From Yuukianura sp. NJ FZ-2021 (lineage: Eukaryota): a stretch of DNA of 64,000 bases. Under the pieces are notes generated by a model that was not told the origin of the DNA, did not search any database, and saw only the letters and a list, made by a program, of their open reading frames with translations. Below are positions 25,858 through 61,900 of this stretch, in pieces. The stretch spans positions 15,004,001 through 15,068,000 of the forward strand of contig CM102285.1 in the NCBI GenBank assembly GCA_046563655.1. Reading direction: 5' to 3'. The translations under genes were made by a program, and so were the position numbers. Position 1 is the stretch's first letter; every line of letters begins with the position of its first letter.

Positions 25858-28476
25858 TCAAACCGATTTTTTAAACAAGTTTCGAAAATCGTCATTGGAC
25901 AACGGTTTCTTGAACTCAGCGCTGGTGGTATTACTGTTCGAGGTACTAGAAGATGCTGCGGCAGTACTTTCTGTAGAAGGTGGCTGATGCACTTGGAGAG
26001 ATCGTGGCACAAAAGTTTTCGGTGGTCGTCGTTGCGTCTTCTTTTCAAACTTCGGCGGTTTGGGCCTTACGAAAGTAGAACCTCGACTTTCACCGTCGTC
26101 CTGACGCTGATCGCTGGAATTCGGTTTGGGTTGATTGAACTTCTTGATTTTTGGATCTTTGGCGCCATCTTGTTGCCCGGAATCAGTTCTCGGCCTCTTC
26201 CCTTTGCCTTTCTGGAATTTATTCTTAGTCTTGTCCTTCTTCGCTGCAATCGCTTGGACATTAGCTTCGTAGTTTTTGGCTAAGAATTCTCCTATTTTGT
26301 CCTCTGCGTGTTTCAGCATCTTCGGGTCACCGAAGTCCCGCTCAAAGTTGAGCCACAGTTCAGATACAACGTCCAGCCCATCTGACATTACACTCATGGC
26401 CTTCTCCAAACACTTTCGAGTTGAATGGACTTCGCCGTATCGCTGCTCCAGTTGGAAAAATTGGATCCACAATTTGAACTGCTGGCCATAGCCTTTGTGA
26501 AGTGCTTGGTACCAAAGTTTCCTGGACTTGGTCATGGATTTTGTCACGTGAGCTTGGAGTCGAATTCCATACAGAAGAAGTTCACCAATGTAATCTCGCG
26601 GTTCTGGAGTAACTTTAAAAAAAAAAAAGAGTTAAAAAAAGTTAACCGTCAATTAATTTAAGAACTGTAATGATAAATTGGTGTTTTACGTAGGACCAAG
26701 TGCTCCTCAGCTGTGGACAGCGTTTTCATGAACAGTTGGATATCAGCATCTACTGGATCCTGGAACTTTATTCTTCTGCGCAGAAACTGGACGTACTTCA
26801 ACCACAAACTTCCAGCTTGATCTCCAGTTCCACAATACTCCAATCCCCGCTCGAATATGGCTAAATTATCAGAGAAGACTTTTTTAATGTATGAATTTCT
26901 TGAAATGAGAGGTTCGGGGCTCACAGGGCTAAGACAAAGTGAAAAATATTGTGGAAAAATATTAGAATTGAGTAGGATTCGAACCCAAGACTCACTTCAA
27001 TACGGTAAGTGCTCTAACCTTTGAGCTATCGGGCTCCTCTTCGACTATTCCAGGACGAACTTAATTACCAAGGTATTTAAGTTAAAAAAGTTAAAATTTT
27101 TCTTAATTACCTCTGACTTTGTCTTTGACATCTTCGTTGTCACTGTTGAACTTTTCAGTTTCCAGCATCCACTGAGCCCAAATGGAAACATCCCAAGGAC
27201 AATTGCGCGTAGCTCGTTCAGCTACTTCCAGCACTACTGAACCGATTTGCAGAGAATTTGAAGCATAAGTTAAGTATTCCAGCCACAGAGAACTGTCGAG
27301 GGCGTTGTCACAAACTGCTCGTTCGAACAGACCTACAAAAAGAAAATGTATCAAAAAAAAATTTTCCAAAAAAATCTTACGTTTTTTATATTTTCAGTTT
27401 TCATGGGACATACAGACTATCCTGGCTGGATTGCTTTTGTCGCTTTTCTCAAATTCGATGTACTCCCTGTACGCTGCAGCGCTGTTTCCAGCTTCACTCT
27501 GAAAAAAAAACATAAAGTTGTCCTGAATCAGAAAAGTACATTTTTTCAATGAAATTTTTTGTGTTGTGTTTGTGTAGTGTAGTACTTACCAGTTTCGTCT
27601 CCCAGACTTCCAAAGTTTTAAGCTTTTGACCAGCATTTTTGTAGTTCCGTTCTGTAGCTTCATCGATATCAAAAATATCTTTGACACTTTCATAAGTCTT
27701 TTCCATTCCAACCAGAGGAACTCCCAGTTGACGAAAGGACAGTGACATACAGCGCAGTTTCTGTTCTTCAGTGCACTCACTGTCTGAAGCTAAAAGTTCC
27801 AGTTCAAACTCCCTGTAAGCATCCCAAAGAACAATTCCTTGAGTAACGTGAAGCCCAACTGCAGCAAGAGCTCGTTCAGCCACGACTCGACATTCGATGA
27901 TCTTCTCTGGGCCCATTTCACGTAAGAACTGAATGTACTCCAGCCAAATCTTGACCGCTAGAACGAAAAAATAGGAACAGTTGAGAAACAATTCGGAAAT
28001 GACAACGATATTTTTGTGTTACACTGATAGTCCTTGACAGCCATCTCGAAAAGGTTGATGATGTCTGACTTCCCGCTGAGATCAGACACGAGGTTGGATT
28101 CGTCGTGTATCCAAGCTAACCAAAGTTCTGGAGTGAGTGGATACAGTTTGCTTAAGGTTCCTCGAGTTGTCCGCAGTTCTTTCAGTTCTCCCATACTTCT
28201 CAGTATTTCTATTTTCTCAACAAGCAGCTCGTAAGAATTGGGTTGATTACTGATCTATTGAATAGAAATACGTGTCAGAGTAAGAAATGATAGATCAGAA
28301 ATGTAAAAGTTAAGTGGACCAACCTGTTCATTTATCGTATCGAGTTTTCTACGCATGGCTTCGTCTTGTTCGTCCATTTCTATGTCTTCTTCATCGGATG
28401 AACTTGAAGAACAATCTGACCCGCTGTTGGATACGTCGTCTTCCCCTGGTATCGGCTGATCATCTTCATCTTCCAT
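25858..28476 (-). CDS. SART3: SART3/p110/Prp24-like U4/U6 recycling factor, 661 aa, apparently lacking RRMs
   Basis: Exons 28476-28324, 28254-28023, 27957-27590, 27498-27414, 27332-27111, 26860-26690, 26612-25858 total 1986 nt in frame. Acidic N-terminus; HAT repeats (YPLTPELWLAWI, ERALAAVGLHVTQGIVLWDAYREFE, ERATRNCPW); C-terminal LSm-interaction motif SNDDFRNLF. Confidence 0.88.
26966..27036 (-). pseudogene. tRNA-derived remnant (SINE head or tRNA pseudogene) in a SART3 intron
   Basis: The minus strand reads gagcccgaTAGCTCAAAGGttagagc...GGTTCGAATCCtac, with A and B boxes at tRNA spacing, but the acceptor and anticodon stems do not pair convincingly. Confidence 0.55.
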
Positions 28477-28872
28477 TCTTACAATGTGGTTGTGTAAACT
28501 GAAGTTCAGTTAAAGACAAAAACAAAATTAGGGAAGAGTTAAACATGATTTAATTTATAATCCAAATATGTATGTTAAATCAATGAGTTAATTGTTCTTA
28601 CCACAGTCGCGAGCCAGGCCAGACATTAATCAGTTAAATTCAAAAATTCAATTAACGGCACTTTGTTTATCGGTGTGGTCGTGGTGTGCGTCCGGGTTTT
28701 TGTTTTGCTAATTTGCATAAATTCGAATGAGTTCAAAAATTCAAACCGACAAAGTTCCCGCCAGTGAAGAAAAATCGAAGCCTTTAAGTATATTTGTCGG
28801 TTGACGTAAACCCAGATTGCACTTGTTGTAATCATATCCTATACTATAACTGTAAAACTATCATACGGATAG

Positions 28873-29064
28873 GTGTTGCTGGATGGATAAAATATTTCGC
28901 CCACTCTCTTCGGAAGTAGTGGATATATTCTTATTTTATTGGTTTCTTTCTGACAAAACTTAATTTCTTCCATCGAAGGCTAGATTTTATCCGGATTTGG
29001 TTTTATCCATTTATCCAGTAGATGTAACCTGGGTGAAATGCAAAGTAGTGGATATCCATCAACA
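28873..29064. mobile_element. Short MITE-like element between SART3 and U1-70K
   Basis: Ends gtgttgctggatggata and tatccatcaacac are imperfect inverted repeats. It shares ggat(a/g)gataaaatatttc and agtggatatcca with 16749-16886. Confidence 0.55.
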
Positions 29065-29554
29065 CTATACACTAGGTAGTTACAATGCTTTCTCACTTTA
29101 AAAGACGTACATCTTGTGGTTTATGTAGCTAGTGTGACCCTACATCGGGTGGATACCGATACCGGATGGATAAAAGCTTTGGCGCCAGCATTTACATTGT
29201 GCGATTACAAGGAATGCAATTTGAGCTTACACTTACCTACTGATCCGTGTCGATCCGATACCGAAGTAAGGTTTACGGTAGGCGGCACCTATAGTAGACA
29301 CGGCATCAGGGGGATCTTTTTGTTTCTCATTCTCAATTTTCAATTCAATTGAATTTATTTAACATCGTTTTTACGTTTTCCTCAGTGTAATTACTTTTTA
29401 AAAGTTAAGTCATCGTCGATTAGTGAATCCTGGCTACAACTAACCATCAGGAAAGGACAGGGAAAGAGCTGATCAACGTTACTGCGTTTCTACATCGACC
29501 ATTCGATCAGCTGACTGGGTTAATTAACTTCATAAGAGATCATAGAAGATAAAG

Positions 29555-32425
29555 ATGACCCAGTTCCTTCCGCCCAATCTGCTCGCCCTCTTTGCAGCCA
29601 GAGACCCCATTCCATACCTCCCTCCTGTCCAACGCCTGAGCCACGAGAAACGAACAACAGGATACACTGGAGTCAGTGACTATCTCGACTACTTTGAGGT
29701 ATTTCAACCGTTTACTCTTACTAAATACTTGATTCTTACTTTGATTAATCACTCAAATTACTTTTCAGACTGGTCCACCACCACCCCGAGAAAAGTATGA
29801 AACGAAAGAAGAGAGACTGGAAAGGAGGCGACGGGAGAAGCAGGAACAAGTGACGTATAAACTGGAACAGGAAATTGCCATGTGTAAGCGGATGGATTTC
29901 GATTAATAATTAAGCAGAGATACGCGAGCTATTAATGTAACTTTTGTTACTTTGCAGGGGACCCTGCTGCCAATGAGAAGGCAACATCAGATCCTTTCAG
30001 AACGATATTCGTCGGAAGAGTTGTAAGTTACTCATCATCTCATCCGTAATCGGTCCAGTTCATACTTTATAATAATCGTTCTTCGTTTTCCAGAACTATG
30101 ATACTACTGAGAGCAAGCTCAAGAGAGAATTTGAAGCGTACGGAGATATCAAGAAGGTATCCAAGTCTATCTGGCGATTCGATAACTAGTTACTTACTTT
30201 ACATTCAAAATCCAGTCTGATACTATTTTGATTTTTAGATTGTCATTGTGAAGGACAAGAAAACGTCAAAGCCACGAGGGTATGCATTTGTGGAATACGA
30301 ACATGAGAGAGACATGCACTGTAAGTATATCCCAAAAGTACTGCCAGTATCCAGTATCATTTGTCTTTCAGCTCAACTCACAAATGTCCCAATACTTCCC
30401 TCCACTAGCAACTTCATAGCTAAAAGATGCGCATTTCAGTTCTTCTCCACCTTTTACAAATTCATCAGCGCATATTTTCATAGTAGTTTAAATCATTAGC
30501 CGCGCCCAACTTGGTTCGCTCAGGTAAAAACCATGAGGTAAAAATAGCGAAAATGTTGCGGTTAAAAGGTAAAAATTGTTTCATTGTGGATCCGTCACTC
30601 TGCAAACAAGGCGAAAAATAACGGTAATCGATTGACTTGTGTGTGGAAGGTAAAAATGGTAAACACTTTTCAATTTTTCGTTTTTTGAAATATTTTGGCA
30701 GAGGGGTAACTGCCGTGTTTTAACTTTTAACTTTTAGTAAAAGTTTCGTTGAGCTTGGTAAGCCAACAAACTTTTTTTTAACTTTGTGCGTTCAACGTTT
30801 TCTTGAATTCCTTTCTCGGGTAAGTCAGAGAAAAAGCCGAAGTCACTTTCCGAGACAATCCGAATTTAAATTTTCCACAAAAGTAAGTAAGTGTTAAGGG
30901 TAAGTTGGTAAGTTTCAAATTAACTGAACCAACAGAAAAACGGTTTAAAAACAAACATAGCATAGGGTGTCCCCACTTCCATTTTTCATAGTTAATTTCT
31001 TAAAAATTTCCAAAATTGAATGATTGATCCAACTTTTCCTCTGCCGTTATAGGTTACCATCCATAAGACACAACTTCACCCGTGCGAGCTAGTAATTTTC
31101 GGTAGGTTGATGTCAAAACAAACAGAAAAATCGGGTTTTCTAAAATTAGAGTTTTTTTTTTAAGTTTCATTTCAGGGGCTTTTGAAACTTACCTCTTCAA
31201 AAGTTCCTGAGCTTTCTATTATTCTTTTGGAGTTTTAAAAAAAACTTGAAAGTTTTTGGAAAAAGTTAGAAAAGTTAATGCCAAACATGTTTGGAAAATG
31301 GAAACCATATTGGAACCTTAACGTTTTTTGGTAGAACCTTTTGCTTGGTTCATGCGCGTACAATTTATACTGACGAAAAAGATGCGCATAGATTCGGAGC
31401 CTTTTTGTTTCGTATAATTTGATTTTGGCCTAATTTCATTTTTGTACTTTTAGCTGCCTACAAACATGCTGATGGGAAGAAGGTCGACGGAAAACGAATT
31501 TTAGTGGACGTGGAACGTGGCCGAACTGTCAAGGGATGGCTACCAAGACGATTAGGTAAGTGAGATTAATCGATTAATACCATGAATTAATCGATTAACG
31601 ACATTTTAAAATAGTGAAATGATGACTTTACCGTATTTTGAATTTTAGGTGGTGGTTTGGGCGGAACTCGACGAGGAGGTCCAGACGTCAACGTCAAAAT
31701 CTCAGGACGCGAAGATCCAGATCGAGAGCGGTTCCGGGACGAAAAGAGCCGTGATGACCGTCGCGAGAGCAGGAGAGACCGTGACAGATCCAAGGATCGG
31801 AACGGTTCGATCGACCGAGATCGGAGGGACCGCCGTCGTGAAGATCGTGTTGCTCGGAATCCCGACCGTGATCGAGACAGAGAGCGACCGCGTGAGCGTG
31901 ACAAAGACAAGGAGAGCAGGAAGCGTCGTCGATCACGTTCGAGAGACAGAGTTCCAGAGGAAGAGGAGGAGAGGTCAAGGAAGAGGTCACGGTCACGTGA
32001 GAAGAAAAGACACAGGGATCGATCCAAGGACAAGGAGAAGAAGAGGGACAGAAGAGACAAGGATCGAGACCGGTAAACAGTCACTTTTCGCAATTTTCAA
32101 AAAAAATATTTTGTAAAAAATTCTGGTTTTGACTAATTTTTAATTTTTTGACTTTTTGCAGCGATCGAAGTGACAGAAAAGAACGGAAGGTGAAGACGGA
32201 AAAGAATTTTAAAGACGATGACGACGAGTTGAACGAAAACGGTTCTCACGTTCGAATCAAACAGGAACCAATGGATGACGGTAGTTTTGAAAAACTATTT
32301 ACAAAAACATTTTGACTTTTTTTTTCTGAAATTTTGATTTTGCAGAGTACGGAGGCTATGACGATGGATACAATGACTATGGCCATGGAGGTGACGAACC
32401 TTACGTGAAGCAGGAGGGGGAGTAA
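29555..32425 (+). CDS. SNRNP70: U1 snRNP 70 kDa protein
   Basis: Exons 29555-29698, 29769-29883, 29958-30022, 30094-30156, 30239-30320, 31454-31555, 31649-32072, 32162-32280, 32346-32425. [25 protein letters not shown] with [45 protein letters not shown] and an RD/RS-rich tail. Confidence 0.97.
30372..30913 (+). promoter_or_regulatory. Putative stop-containing cryptic exon plus donor-site cluster in the long U1-70K intron
   Basis: Acceptor ttgtctttcag ending at 30371, in-frame TAG at 30497-30499, and about 13 GTAA donor-like motifs between 30524 and 30913. Confidence 0.65.
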
Positions 32426-32519
32426 ATAAGATTCTTGATTTAGCCAACATCTTTTGTAAGTTTTAGTAAGTTGAGTGCAGGATTTCAAACAAATGATGTT
32501 TAAAAAACAAAAGATATCG

Positions 32520-32617
32520 GTACACTTTTTTCCAATTTCACAACATTTCGTTTGCTGTTGTCAATTTTTAATCGATTCTCCCATAAATTCTAATGCTAAA
32601 GGAAGAAAAATATAATT
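32520..32617 (+). repeat. Direct repeat copy 1 (~100 bp), left of the unassigned gene
   Basis: gtacactttttt(t)ccaatttc(a/t)caacatttcgtt...ttgtcaatttttaatcgatt...gaaaaatataa recurs at 33861-33962. Confidence 0.85.
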
Positions 32618-32854
32618 TATCTTGTGGCATTGTATTCTTGCTTCTATATAATGGTTGATGTGTTTGAAAATGAAGGGCGGGAAACCATATTCACAATTCA
32701 GAACAGTTTTTTCTCTTGTCTTCCTTTCCTTCTCCTTTTTTTGACTTTGACATTTATTGCGAAAGCTCACTCACGAACATTTGGATAACAGTTATCCGAT
32801 AACTGTACAACTTGTGTCACAAAAGTCCCATTTCTTGCATCTGATTTAAATAAA

Positions 32855-33697
32855 ATGGATAGTAGTCACCTTTACTCGTCTGGCCTGTCGGTGGACCTTC
32901 TGGAGAGCTTTAGACAACTTTGCGACGAGAGAAGAAATAAGCGACAACGGGTAATCATGGCGGCCGAAGCCGAAGCTCAGCAGGAAATTGAACCTACATT
33001 GTTTCTCTTGAGAGACCTCAAGATCCGGGGAGTAGATTTGTCACATGCTCTACGCGGATCTTATACCAAGTTTTTAGCAATCGTTGAGAGGGATGGATGT
33101 ACGGGTGAGAACGTCATTAAGTTCTACAAGGGGAGAGAAGATCTTTCAGCCCTCAGGTCGAATCTGCGAAAACCTCGATATATTCCGAAGGGGTAAACGA
33201 GAGCGGAATGTCGCTTCACTAAAGTGAATAATATTTAAACTGAAGAATGAGATGACGTAATGGTATTAAATATGGTTACAGGATCAATCATTCATGGTAC
33301 TACATCAAGCGATCGACAGTTGTGGAGGAGGAGGAGTTCATGATGCTCAGTTCGGATACTGAAGGAAAAGATATCAAGACACTTATGTATTCTATTGTCA
33401 TCACTGATGCCGATCACACCTCGGCACAACTGGTATTTGATGATCTGGGTGAAAAGAGCAAAGTTGCAGCCCTGCTCCGTGAGAAGGTCATCCAGGCTCA
33501 ACGAGAACCGTAAGCGTGAAACATTTGCACGAGTCAAGGCATATTAAGTAGCACTTTTGTAAATTCCTTTATTCAATTTGAGCAGAATGAGCAGTGGTGA
33601 GGAGGCAGGAGATTCCGAGGGAGGATCTGATGCTGGGAGTGAAGTTTCAAGTGCCAATTCTTCAATGTCGCCGCCACCTCCACCAGTTACTCCATGA
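32855..33697 (+). CDS. Hypothetical 225-aa protein, three exons, no family recognised
   Basis: Exons 32855-33192, 33282-33509, 33586-33697 splice in frame through GT-AG introns (678 nt). The start context is aaaATGg, and a GGCGGGAA motif lies at 32676. The C-terminus is Ser/Gly/acidic and ends SPPPPPVTP. Confidence 0.65.
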
Positions 33698-58959: not shown

Positions 58960-61900
58960 TCACTCATTTTTCTTCGTTTTGACCTTTGACCTCGGAAAGT
59001 CAAAGGTCAAACAAAGTTCAAGGGCAAATGACTCTAGAGCGGTAAAACTGAATGAAGAATTTTGAAAATTTGTTAATTTTTTGTGAAAAATCCTGATTTA
59101 TCAATTTCTGTTGACAAATCTTAAAAATTTGGAAAAGTCAATTTTGAAAAAAAAATCTGTGTTTCTCTTACCCGCAGCAATCATTTTCCACTTGGCCTTG
59201 TTTTCCTGTAAGTGGTTGAGCCATGGACGTGTGTTTGCGCTGGTCTGGACATGCGCATGGTCCGTCTGGAGTGGAAACGAGGACGTCCGTCCACCGTCCG
59301 TCAGCATTTTGACTTCCGTCTTTCGTTCAGCAGTGCCAGCACTGGAACAGCCACTCACATGCGTGTCTGACTCTGCTCTGCGTCCATGTCTCAGTGGCTT
59401 GACCTTGTGAATTGGAGTCGTTTGACCTTTGAGGTTGGCCACGGTGACCTCTGAGTCCTCCCTGACCAAGTAGTCCATGAGTTCCCCCAGCACAGCCATA
59501 CTTGGTTCCACGATGTACTCGATGAAGCTGATCTGTGACTCTGGCACCAACACACTCGATCTGTCGCAGAGCGGACTAAAAGGGAGGCCGAGCTTCGCTT
59601 CCTCGTCACCTTGCAGAAAAAATTCATCCAGGATGTGATCCGCCAGCTTCTTGTGAATCCGCCATGGTTTCCCCGGGTGACTGATATCCGCACAGTGCAG
59701 AATCAGACACATAGCGGTCGTTGTCGTCTTCGGATTGGCTACAGCAGTTCTACGAAAAAAAGTAATTACAACCTTGAATTACTTGAATGAATTATAATTA
59801 CTTGAATTACTTAAAGCCAGTTACTTGAATTATTTGTGATTGCTTGAGTTAATTGTAATTAGTTGTAGCTACTTGAATTACTTAAACTACTTGTAATTAC
59901 CTGAATTACTTGAATTAATTGTAATTAACAGGGTAAGTACGTTTTGAATTATAGTTGGTAGAAAGTTGGTTACAGCAGTAGTACAAAGCAAGTAATCACA
60001 ACCTTGTATTACTTGAATTAGCTATAATTACTTGTAATTAGCAGAGTAATTCATTTCAGACTGACCTGCTCTCCTTTAGCATTGAGCGAACAGTTTTGAG
60101 TTGCGTAAAGTGACTGGACATGTCAGTGGACAGGACCATTTCAATTACTAAGTTACGAAACTCTCTGTAGTCGTCTGGCTTCAAGTGGCACAAGATGTTC
60201 TTCTCATCATCTTTCAGCAGTCTAGAGTTAAGAAAAATTCAAAATTTTCAAAATTCTAGTTTTGAAAAAAGTAGTTTTTGGAAGTTTTTGTTGGAAAACT
60301 TTGTATACAGAGGATCTGTAGGATCGATTGGTTCATTGATTATAGAAAAATCTTTGTTAAGAAAATGCCAGAAATAGGATTTCGACATTTTGAACATATT
60401 TTGGAAATGTCGAATAACAAAAACAACAGTTTTCTCCGGTCTAATTGCTTTTGTGATTTGGAAAATAACAATTTTGAACTTTCATTTTCCAGAATTTCAA
60501 AAGTTCGACTAACTTCTTGAATTTACTAATTAAAATGGGAGTAATTGTTAATTAGTGCCGCTGGCTTTCACTTCTAATTATTCCTTTCCGAGTCATTAAA
60601 AAATCAAAGTCATTTCAAAATTCGAAACCGAAGATCGTCAAAAAGAGAAAACTATTTTTGGAGAAAGTTTGATTTTGATGAAGTTTTTTTTCTTTTTGAA
60701 AATATAGACTTGATGGAAATGGACAGTTGCGTGTGACAAGTGGTGTCCAGCTGGAAGGAGTCCAGTTGTGTGACACAACTTGTGTCCAGCCCTGTCTCCA
60801 GCGATTCTTCCAGCCACTGCACACTTTCACTTTCCAGCTCCAGCGCTTCCAGCGAAATCGCTGGAAGTACGAATGTTCCTGGAACAGCGCTTTCCTGACA
60901 CAAATCCTCCTGGACACACTCGTACTCTCTTGTCCTCTAAATTACAAAAGCTCAGCTTTTCATGTCACTCATAAACAGTCACACGGATTGCTCTCAAAAC
61001 AGTCACAATCAAAACAACTTTCAAAAAATTTTCACAAAATTTCAAAAAAACGAAAACGAAAAACTACAACAAAGCAATTCAATTTGAAAATAAAAAGAAA
61101 AACAGAATCATAGTCAAAGTTTCAAATAAAAATGAAAACATTATTTCTTGAGTGAAGGAAAGAGTGTACGGTGAACTAGTGAAAAAGTCTCCTAAAAATT
61201 ATTTTAACAAAATGTTTTTTTTTGTGAGTGGCTTTGAACCAAACCTCAAATTTTTAAGAAAATCGACATTTTCGTTCCACTTTGAATCAGTTTTTGAACA
61301 TTTTTAGAAAAAGTGCTTGTTTTTTTGTGAAATGTTTAAAGATGAGAGTCCTTATTTGCGTATTGACTGACTACTGAGGACACTCTGTCAACAGCTGAGA
61401 ATTGAATATTCACGAAGTGCCTGGTAGTGGAAAGTGACAGTGAATAAGTGATAGCATCTCACTTCAACTTCAAAAAAAAAACACTGTACATCTACTACAA
61501 AACGATTTTCACTTTTTCACCAACTTTTTTTGAAAAAACTTTTTTTTTGAAAGTTTGAAATTGAAGGAGAGTGACTCACTTGAAGGCAGCACTGACATGA
61601 TGATTCTCGAGCACTGCTCTGTCGTTGTAGAGCAGAGCAAGGTCTGTGCCCACGTTGACATGGAAGTTATTGGTCCTACCCGTGTGTTCATAGTCGTGGA
61701 TTACAGCAGCAAACAACAGGGCAAAGATCTCCAAATCAGTCAAAACGTTCTGCAAAAACAGCAAAAAATTAAATTTGACTTTTTACTTCTTCCAACTTCT
61801 TAGGGCAAAGATTTCCAAATCAGTCACACAGCAAAAAATCTTAATTTGACTTTTGACTTTTTCCAATTTCCTAGGGCAAAGATCTCCAAATCAGTCAAAA

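Follow-up and report, generated by a model that had tools for sequence, protein, structure and literature searches.

A sense-strand array of donor-like sites in the long intron of a springtail U1-70K gene, a probable counterpart of the vertebrate SNRNP70 feedback intron

The U1-70K gene of the springtail Yuukianura sp. NJ FZ-2021 raises the question of why a single intron, the fifth, should be so much longer than the others and should carry, on its sense strand, a dense array of sequences resembling 5' splice sites (donors). The gene lies within a stretch of 64,000 nucleotides (nt) from the forward strand of contig CM102285.1 (assembly GCA_046563655.1, positions 15,004,001 to 15,068,000); this whole stretch is referred to as the window, and coordinates are counted from its first letter. 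Taken together, the composition of the intron, the premature stops that it would introduce and the transcripts of related animals suggest that intron 5 is probably the arthropod counterpart of intron 7 of vertebrate SNRNP70, working as a negative-feedback sensor of U1 snRNP (small nuclear ribonucleoprotein).

The donor-like array and its host gene

The gene that hosts the array is U1-70K. Nine exons between 29555 and 32425 on the + strand join into an open frame of 397 codons followed by TAA (Table 1). In Pfam scans, which were made on single exons, exon 1 matches U1snRNP70_N at 59.9 bits (cut-off 23), with the profile continuing into exon 2, and exon 5 matches RRM_1 at 27.6 bits. Relatives of exon 1 display 69-94% identity over that exon and carry the source-given name U1 small nuclear ribonucleoprotein 70 kDa, with the springtail Allacma among the best named of them. 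The introns measure, in order, 70, 74, 71, 82, 1133, 93, 89 and 65 nt, and the fifth interrupts the RNA-recognition motif (RRM) in a serine codon, between ..EHERDMH and AYKHADGKK (DMH-S/AYK).

Donor-like sites were scored as matches to the nine-position consensus CAGGTAAGT, those with at least seven matches being termed strong. Intron 5 contains 13 donor-like sites, located at 30524, 30538, 30569, 30624, 30650, 30659, 30706, 30758, 30820, 30883, 30887, 30900 and 30908. The first eight read GTAAAA, GTAATC, GTAAAC, GTAACT or GTAAGC and the last five GTAAGT; in order along the intron they match the consensus at 7, 6, 6, 5, 6, 5, 6 and 6 and then at 8, 7, 7, 7 and 7 positions, the weakest being 30624 and 30659 with 5/9 each. 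Their spacing is irregular (4-63 nt) and their flanks differ. All 13 are of the GTAAG/GTAAA type and, measured against the familiar U12-type consensus, the array contains no tandem U12-type 5' splice-site sequences.

The concentration of these sites is specific to both place and strand. Within 30523-30911 the sense strand contains 11 copies of GGTAA, compared with two on the antisense strand of the entire intron, while any other 400-nt stretch of the window, on either strand, holds at most two; in 300 dinucleotide-preserving shuffles of intron 5 the mean count was 1.4 and the maximum five. Strong sites number six on the sense strand of the intron and one on the antisense strand, the background across the window being 0.72 per kb for each strand, and no second copy of the array was found in the 64-kb window. 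These results bear out the descriptive part of the original prediction, which had set an intron of 1133 nt against short remaining introns (65-93 nt as measured) and had listed 13 donor-like sites, all sense and the last five GTAAGT, with every coordinate correct. That prediction had also staked its reading on a donor density above background, and the 11 GGTAA found here compare with two or fewer in any other 400-nt stretch of the window. Its portrayal of the array as running from weak to strong is apt as a description of the match scores, while nothing in the analyses run points to the gradient mattering.

Upstream of the array lies a sequence resembling a 3' splice site (acceptor), ending at 30371, whose pyrimidine content is similar to that of the real acceptors of U1-70K and which is, by that measure, the best one upstream of the array. 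A sense-strand cluster of 5' splice-site sequences downstream of a candidate acceptor, the arrangement that characterizes the vertebrate exon-7a cassette, is present in intron 5. Splicing from 30320 to 30372 would read ..DMHS-QLTNV..LNH and terminate at the TAG at 30497-30499, and full retention of intron 5 leads in the same frame to the same TAG, because donor and acceptor lie 51 nt apart; both the position and the reading had been predicted and were reproduced by translation. Further acceptor-like AGs follow, of which the one at 30408 would lead to a stop, as computed, and the one at 30439 reaches a stop too, by hand reading. Judged from their sequence, the candidates at 30408, 30439 and 30483 would be as eligible as 30371 in this springtail.

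Table 1. Coordinates of the U1-70K gene and of the features of its fifth intron, numbered from the first letter of the window.
Feature	Position	Strand	Remarks
U1-70K exons 1-5	29555-29698, 29769-29883, 29958-30022, 30094-30156, 30239-30320	+	joins give open frame
U1-70K exons 6-9	31454-31555, 31649-32072, 32162-32280, 32346-32425	+	joins give open frame
Intron 5	30321-31453	+	1133 nt, phase 1; sole long intron of U1-70K (other seven 65-93 nt)
Best acceptor-like site upstream of array	30355-30371	+	tatcatttgtctttcag; ttgtctttcag/C, ends at 30371
Candidate poison-exon start	30372-30499	+	S-QLTNV..LNH, then TAG at 30497-30499, by translation
Further acceptor-like AGs	30402-30483	+	at 30408 (stop computed), 30439 and 30483 (read by eye)
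Donor-like array (13 sites, GGTAA in 11 of them)	30523-30913	+	GTAAAA-type first, then GTAAGC, then five GTAAGT
Donor-poor 3' half of intron 5	30914-31453	+	ends in constitutive acceptor ttgtacttttag

The same exon junction in related proteins and transcripts

Some of the proteins related to exon 1 diverge at the very position of intron 5. The motif E[YF]E.E..MH is held by 65 of the 120 listed exon-1 relatives; 46 of these 65 go on with (S/A)AYK or STYK, while 19 diverge directly after ..MH, and 16 of the 19 end 0-45 residues later. Tails reading CKY or CE are the translation of a donor, GTAAGT or GTGAGT, and thus indicate retention; protein P0001, which is 94% identical to exon 1 of the window, bears a tail of this type. 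Other tails begin with Y (moths, YPAV..), F (beetles, FRAAGN and FELQATK; a leafhopper, FWGRR) or S (SWWPLP..IGLYVW), none of which can be encoded by a GT start, so that splicing to another exon is indicated.

Transcripts tell of the same junction. With a profile built from the relative proteins, 80 metagenome loci encoding U1-70K relatives were found, nearly all of them cDNA-like, since residues 1-156, which in the window are spread over five exons, are contiguous. A normal junction is displayed by 53 of the 80, an insert or divergence directly after ..MH by 26, and one ends at the junction. Removal of L013 and L014 as duplicates of L012 left 24 distinct inserts (20,362 nt), among which shared sequence is found in L023 and L028 only and is confined to the exon. 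Fifteen of the inserts start with GT at the exon-5 donor, with residues 1-156 contiguous, and this donor was therefore left unused (retention). The other nine lack a GT start, and seven of these extend to an AG immediately before exon 6, which indicates use of an internal acceptor with the downstream intron kept. The existence of same-species contigs that differ by the insert alone (L008, L010 and L011 versus L054; L064 versus L049; L071 versus L073), together with the contiguity of residues 1-156, identifies the contigs as transcript isoforms. An in-frame stop is present in 23 of the 24 inserts. In these transcripts, then, either an internal acceptor has been used or the intron has been retained.

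Two pairs of contigs extend this picture. In the aphid-like pair, the internal acceptor of L028 is not found within the 1113 nt of intron retained in L023, so that the aphid-like first sub-intron must be longer than 1113 nt. Contigs L025 and L027 encode an identical peptide around the junction and differ by a 58-nt insert with a non-GT start, a TAG before exon 6 and a frameshift; this insert looks like a short alternative 3' extension, not a long retained intron.

The inserts also display the strand bias of the window. Summed over the 24, strong donor-like sites number 73 on the sense strand versus seven on the antisense strand (binomial p 6e-15), and GGTAAR is found 69 versus five times; by locus, the sense strand is in excess in 19 inserts, equal in four and poorer in one. 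As a control, 134 kb of coding and untranslated sequence outside the inserts gave 82 sense versus 78 antisense sites (tally over 21 inserts). The excess observed in intron 5 of the springtail thus recurs in 24 other taxa at the corresponding junction, and its conservation supports a role of these sites in U1 binding. When intron 5 of the window was compared with the relatives' inserts by blastn, matches of 11-15 nt only were returned, mostly the donor motifs themselves; what is kept across taxa at this junction is, judging from these comparisons, motif content and strand, not sequence.

An exception to this lack of shared sequence, and a link to vertebrates, is provided by a short element, GGTTTGTAT followed after 0-6 nt by GGTAAG, in eight distinct relatives (L009, L028, L030, L012, L056, L059, L069 and, more loosely, L077), including leafhopper-like L009 (95% to Homalodisca), aphid-like L028 (97%) and ant-like L030 (93%). 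In five relatives the element starts 60-83 nt downstream of the internal acceptor, a distance similar to that in vertebrates. By eye, it matches sites B and C of the vertebrate sequence, GGGTTTGTAT..GGGTAAGAT (PMC3798272, Figure S2A), the stretch GGTTTGTAT..GGTAAGA being common to insect-like relatives and vertebrate exon 7a. Moreover, the published exon-7a sequence, when read from a phase-1 junction, reaches a TGA in our own reading. The cassette is here taken as homologous between insects and vertebrates, and homology of intron 5 of the window to SNRNP70 intron 7 is indirectly supported, by way of the relatives' inserts at DMH/(S)AYK that carry the B/C motif.

Long arrays are found in a hydrozoan-like and a springtail-like relative. 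In L073, whose closest named relatives are Hydractinia (67%) and Hydra (65%), an internal acceptor is used and is followed by nine GGTAAR, of which eight read GGTAAG and one reads GGTAAA, mostly at intervals of about 20-25 nt. Contig L001, from an Orchesella-like springtail (91% to U1-70K of Orchesella dallaii), holds a 1339-nt insert with nine sense versus one antisense strong sites and is devoid of the GGTTTGTAT element. As far as the sequences tell, a long intron, an enlarged array and the lack of the canonical block are common to two springtail lineages.

The vertebrate loop, its proposed counterpart and rival explanations

In human, mouse and zebrafish, intron 7 of SNRNP70 contains an alternative 3' splice site whose use introduces a premature stop (Rosel-Hillgartner et al., 2013; PMC3798272). 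This exon-7a site depends on cryptic 5' splice sites (A, B and C) clustered just downstream, to which U1 snRNP binds additively, and depletion of U1C turns the acceptor off (PMC3798272). Subsequently, the same SNRNP70 element was described as a 60/72-nt decoy exon that promotes retention of the downstream intron, and blocking of the decoy 5' splice site in human cells lowered retention from approximately 35% to approximately 9% (Parra et al., RNA 2020; PMC7373989). The likeness to the springtail lies in the same gene, a long intron within the RRM-coding part and a stop-giving internal 3' splice site (in the springtail a candidate) followed by a cryptic 5' cluster; the same logic, feedback through occupancy by U1 snRNP, is proposed. 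Seven of the relatives' contigs have exactly the form of the SNRNP70 decoy, an internal exon with the downstream intron kept. Differences exist as well. In vertebrates the sites number three or four (A-D), lie no more than about 85 nt from the acceptor and belong to a block that fish and human have in common (PMC3798272), whereas the springtail has 13 sites over 390 nt, the first of them 152 nt after the best acceptor, and no conserved block; and whereas the decoy is a defined exon of 60/72 nt, the many candidate 5' sites of the springtail do not fix the bounds of an exon by sequence. Dependence upon U1C and nonsense-mediated decay have been demonstrated in vertebrates and are suggested for the springtail by analogy.

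Related logic is known from other genes and lineages. Tandem copies of a 5' splice site activate an upstream 3' site in the genes for U11-48K and U11/U12-65K (Verbeeren et al., 2010, cited in PMC3798272). There, too, each gene encodes a protein of the very snRNP that its copies bind, but the copies are U12-type sites of the minor spliceosome bound by U11, whereas those of the springtail are U2-type GTAAG/GTAAA. In ENOX1/Enox, an intronic pseudo-5' splice site that is never spliced, and whose conservation extends from insects to humans, binds U1 snRNP and tunes an alternative exon nearby (Nat Commun 2026; PMC13100119); it is a single 9-nt silencer site in an unrelated gene, in contrast to a 13-site array in U1-70K. 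The searchable supplements of that report, which screened for pseudo-5' splice sites across animals, list SNRNP70 once, among the vertebrate-conserved pseudo-5' sites (PMC13100119).

In plants, work by Golovkin and Reddy from 1996 reportedly described retention of U1-70K intron 6, which leads to a truncated protein. Truncated transcripts of plant U1-70Ks are also mentioned in the Discussion of PMC8211703. By description, the plant gene is similar in that its RRM portion contains a long intron under regulation and that a truncated product results.

The following mechanism is proposed for the springtail. When intact U1 snRNP is plentiful, it would occupy the pseudo-5' splice sites at 30523-30913, and the occupied array would, by exon definition, activate an upstream internal acceptor (30371 or a neighbour), would stall removal of the remainder of intron 5, or would do both. 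Each resulting RNA would carry a stop soon after DMH(S), inside the RRM, so that no working U1-70K would be made from it and the RNA would presumably be degraded or kept in the nucleus. With U1 snRNP in short supply, the sites would be empty, exon 5 would be joined to exon 6, and production of U1-70K would rise. Binding of U1, dependence upon the level of U1-70K or U1C, decay of the product and the acceptor used by this springtail are what we infer from these comparisons. Since the B/C block is missing from the window, intron 5 is classed as a variant that would work alike, not as a member of the cassette at the level of sequence. The vertebrate mechanism described in the original prediction (an acceptor giving a premature stop, downstream cryptic 5' sites and dependence upon U1C) agrees with PMC3798272. 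Its proposal of a U1 sensor gains from the sense-strand excess and from the indirect homology of the intron, and loses as regards early acceptor use, as two springtail-like relatives show retention.

Several observations weigh against the proposed sensor. The 51-nt first sub-intron that use of 30371 would create is shorter than every other intron of U1-70K (at least 65 nt), and use of 30371 and retention of intron 5 in this springtail are predictions from the genome. Intron 5 of the window yields no hit to GGTTTGTAT..GGTAAG at up to two substitutions, the nearest look-alike being CTTGTGTGTGGAAGGTAAAA at 30636, and no insert can be aligned to it, so that homology of the array is argued from position and motif content alone. 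Springtail-like P0001 and L001 read through the exon-5 donor and display no early internal acceptor. The insert of L001 (positions 946-2284 of the contig) ends in ..GGTGTTGC, which is not an AG, where the exon-6 codons begin. Hence its last junction either joins an internal donor to exon 6 or is a product of faulty or chimeric assembly. Five of the 24 inserts lack a sense excess, one of them being that of ant-like L030, which has the conserved element and no further strong sites in 1 kb. Among assembled metatranscriptome contigs there can also be chimeras and nuclear precursors that are still unspliced. Finally, one spot of the window is as dense as the U1-70K array by a 6/9 measure (12 sites of at least 6/9 per 400 nt in each). 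It is a degenerate 9-nt tandem repeat at 59773-59928 (- strand; sense unit CAAGTAATT, about 16 copies) in a phosphodiesterase intron, whose flanking exon matches Pfam PDEase_I at 88.6 bits, and it indicates that donor-like density alone can arise by slippage.

That last observation bears upon the notion that the cluster has no function and arose neutrally, as local duplication or slippage acted on an AT-rich intron. Intron 5 does contain two short local duplications, GGTAAGTT twice and AAGGTAAAAAT.GT twice, 81 nt apart, and the tandem 9-mer shows that a similar loose density is attainable. Nevertheless, a plain tandem repeat as the source of the U1-70K cluster was rejected, Tandem Repeats Finder having detected no tandem array in intron 5; the 13 sites differ in flanks and spacing, and the same strand-specific excess is found in the unalignable introns of 19 of 24 other taxa, all of which makes a neutral origin very unlikely. 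Constitutive binding of U1 snRNP, by which the array would protect the sole long intron from premature cleavage and polyadenylation or would help to define and remove it, would account for sites that are sense-specific and confined to the only long intron of the gene. U1 is established as a suppressor of premature polyadenylation. The absence of AATAAA and ATTAAA from intron 5 cuts both ways: it leaves no pointer to regulated intronic polyadenylation, and it leaves little to protect, where about two such hexamers would be expected by our own estimate from base composition. Constitutive binding is judged unlikely, given that, from taxon to taxon, the feature stays with one junction of one gene and is accompanied there by internal acceptors and stops, and that blocking of a decoy 5' site alters retention of this intron in human cells (PMC7373989).

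Two further explanations concern the length of the intron. The sites might be steps in recursive splicing, as an acceptor-like cag stands directly before the GTAAAA at 30524. Recursive splicing is known from introns of many kb, versus 1.1 kb here. A juxtaposed AG is found at 30524 only, with a poor pyrimidine tract, short of what defines a recursive site, and relatives' transcripts show retention and stops in place of seamless removal, which leaves recursion highly improbable. Alternatively, the intron might owe its length to another element inside it, be it a gene for a non-coding RNA, the remnant of a transposon or an antisense gene, the donor motifs being incidental; this would give a reason for the 3' half at 30914-31453, which is otherwise unexplained and in which repeats and a 15-bp hairpin are found. 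The idea of an embedded gene or RNA was rejected, however, since a scan of 29000-33000 with Rfam yielded a chance-level match only (best E 0.81), no second copy occurs in the window and no frame on either strand of intron 5 is open for more than 86 codons, so that such an element is very improbable.

The remainder of the locus and the meaning of the loop

The donor-poor half of intron 5 contains two sites of 6/9 only (31092 and 31102) but several repeats. A perfect 13-nt inverted repeat at 30907-30919 and 31181-31193 sets the last decoy donor, GGTAAGTTTCAAA, against a downstream TTTGAAACTTACC, an arm that presumably contains a copy of the U1 5'-end sequence; the pairing is missing from the minimum-energy fold of 30890-31210 (fold z-score -0.32). 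The second arm falls within a hairpin at 31172-31210, present in minimum-energy and centroid folds alike, whose 15-nt arms are 87% complementary and whose 9-nt loop shows ACUUACCUC, complementary to sites of the GGTAAGT type. A perfect 13-nt direct repeat, AAAAGATGCGCAT, occurs at 30422-30434 and 31377-31389, 955 nt apart, one copy standing directly before the acceptor-like tttcag at 30439 and the other some 65 nt upstream of the real acceptor; since the core of the repeat, ATGCGCAT, is palindromic around GCGC, the two copies could also pair. Intron 6 contains, at 31565-31598, two copies of ATTAATCGATTAA, its own inverted repeat, 21 nt apart, and a related TAATCGATTGAC lies at 30625-30636, within the donor array of intron 5.

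Upstream of U1-70K, on the opposite strand (27494-28509), lies a divergent gene with HAT repeats, one exon of which matches the Pfam profile for the N-terminal HAT repeat of PRP39 at 32 bits (cut-off 27.7); we take it to be nearer SART3 than PRP39. In either case, a second splicing-factor gene stands head to head with U1-70K, approximately 1 kb apart.

In print, PMC3798272 describes the U1-70K loop as conserved among vertebrates and PMC7373989 describes it as conserved 'from fish to mammals', and the Discussion of PMC8211703 places truncating splice sites 'specifically in vertebrates'. A full-text literature search, with subscription journals outside its coverage, found no description of an invertebrate U1-70K cassette. 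The same junction with internal acceptors, stops and sense-strand donor copies, as indicated by the sequences of insect-like, springtail-like and hydrozoan-like transcripts, suggests a wider distribution. The intron 5 array is most likely a variant of the published autoregulation of U1-70K by exon 7a or the decoy exon, and that autoregulation would be older than those papers state: its origin appears to lie as far back as the ancestor shared by cnidarians and bilaterians, a depth that is unstated in the available text of PMC3798272 and PMC7373989 and denied in that of PMC8211703. It may be proposed, more tentatively and at somewhat less than even chances, that the cassette is a U1 snRNP homeostat older than the cnidarian-bilaterian split, kept at one intron position throughout, with sites B and C preserved in insects, and that its replacement or extension by 9-13 pseudo-donors took place in springtails and, as a separate event, in a hydrozoan-like lineage. 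If so, arrays of 9-13 sites could provide a graded, multi-site reading of the concentration of U1 snRNP rather than a three-site switch.

The amount of working U1 snRNP is set by U1-70K, and with it 5' splice-site choice and protection from premature polyadenylation throughout the genome. Recognition of the loop in animals such as this springtail makes it testable in invertebrates with small genomes, where natural variants of 3 to 13 sites would allow the number, strength and order of sites to be related to the response.

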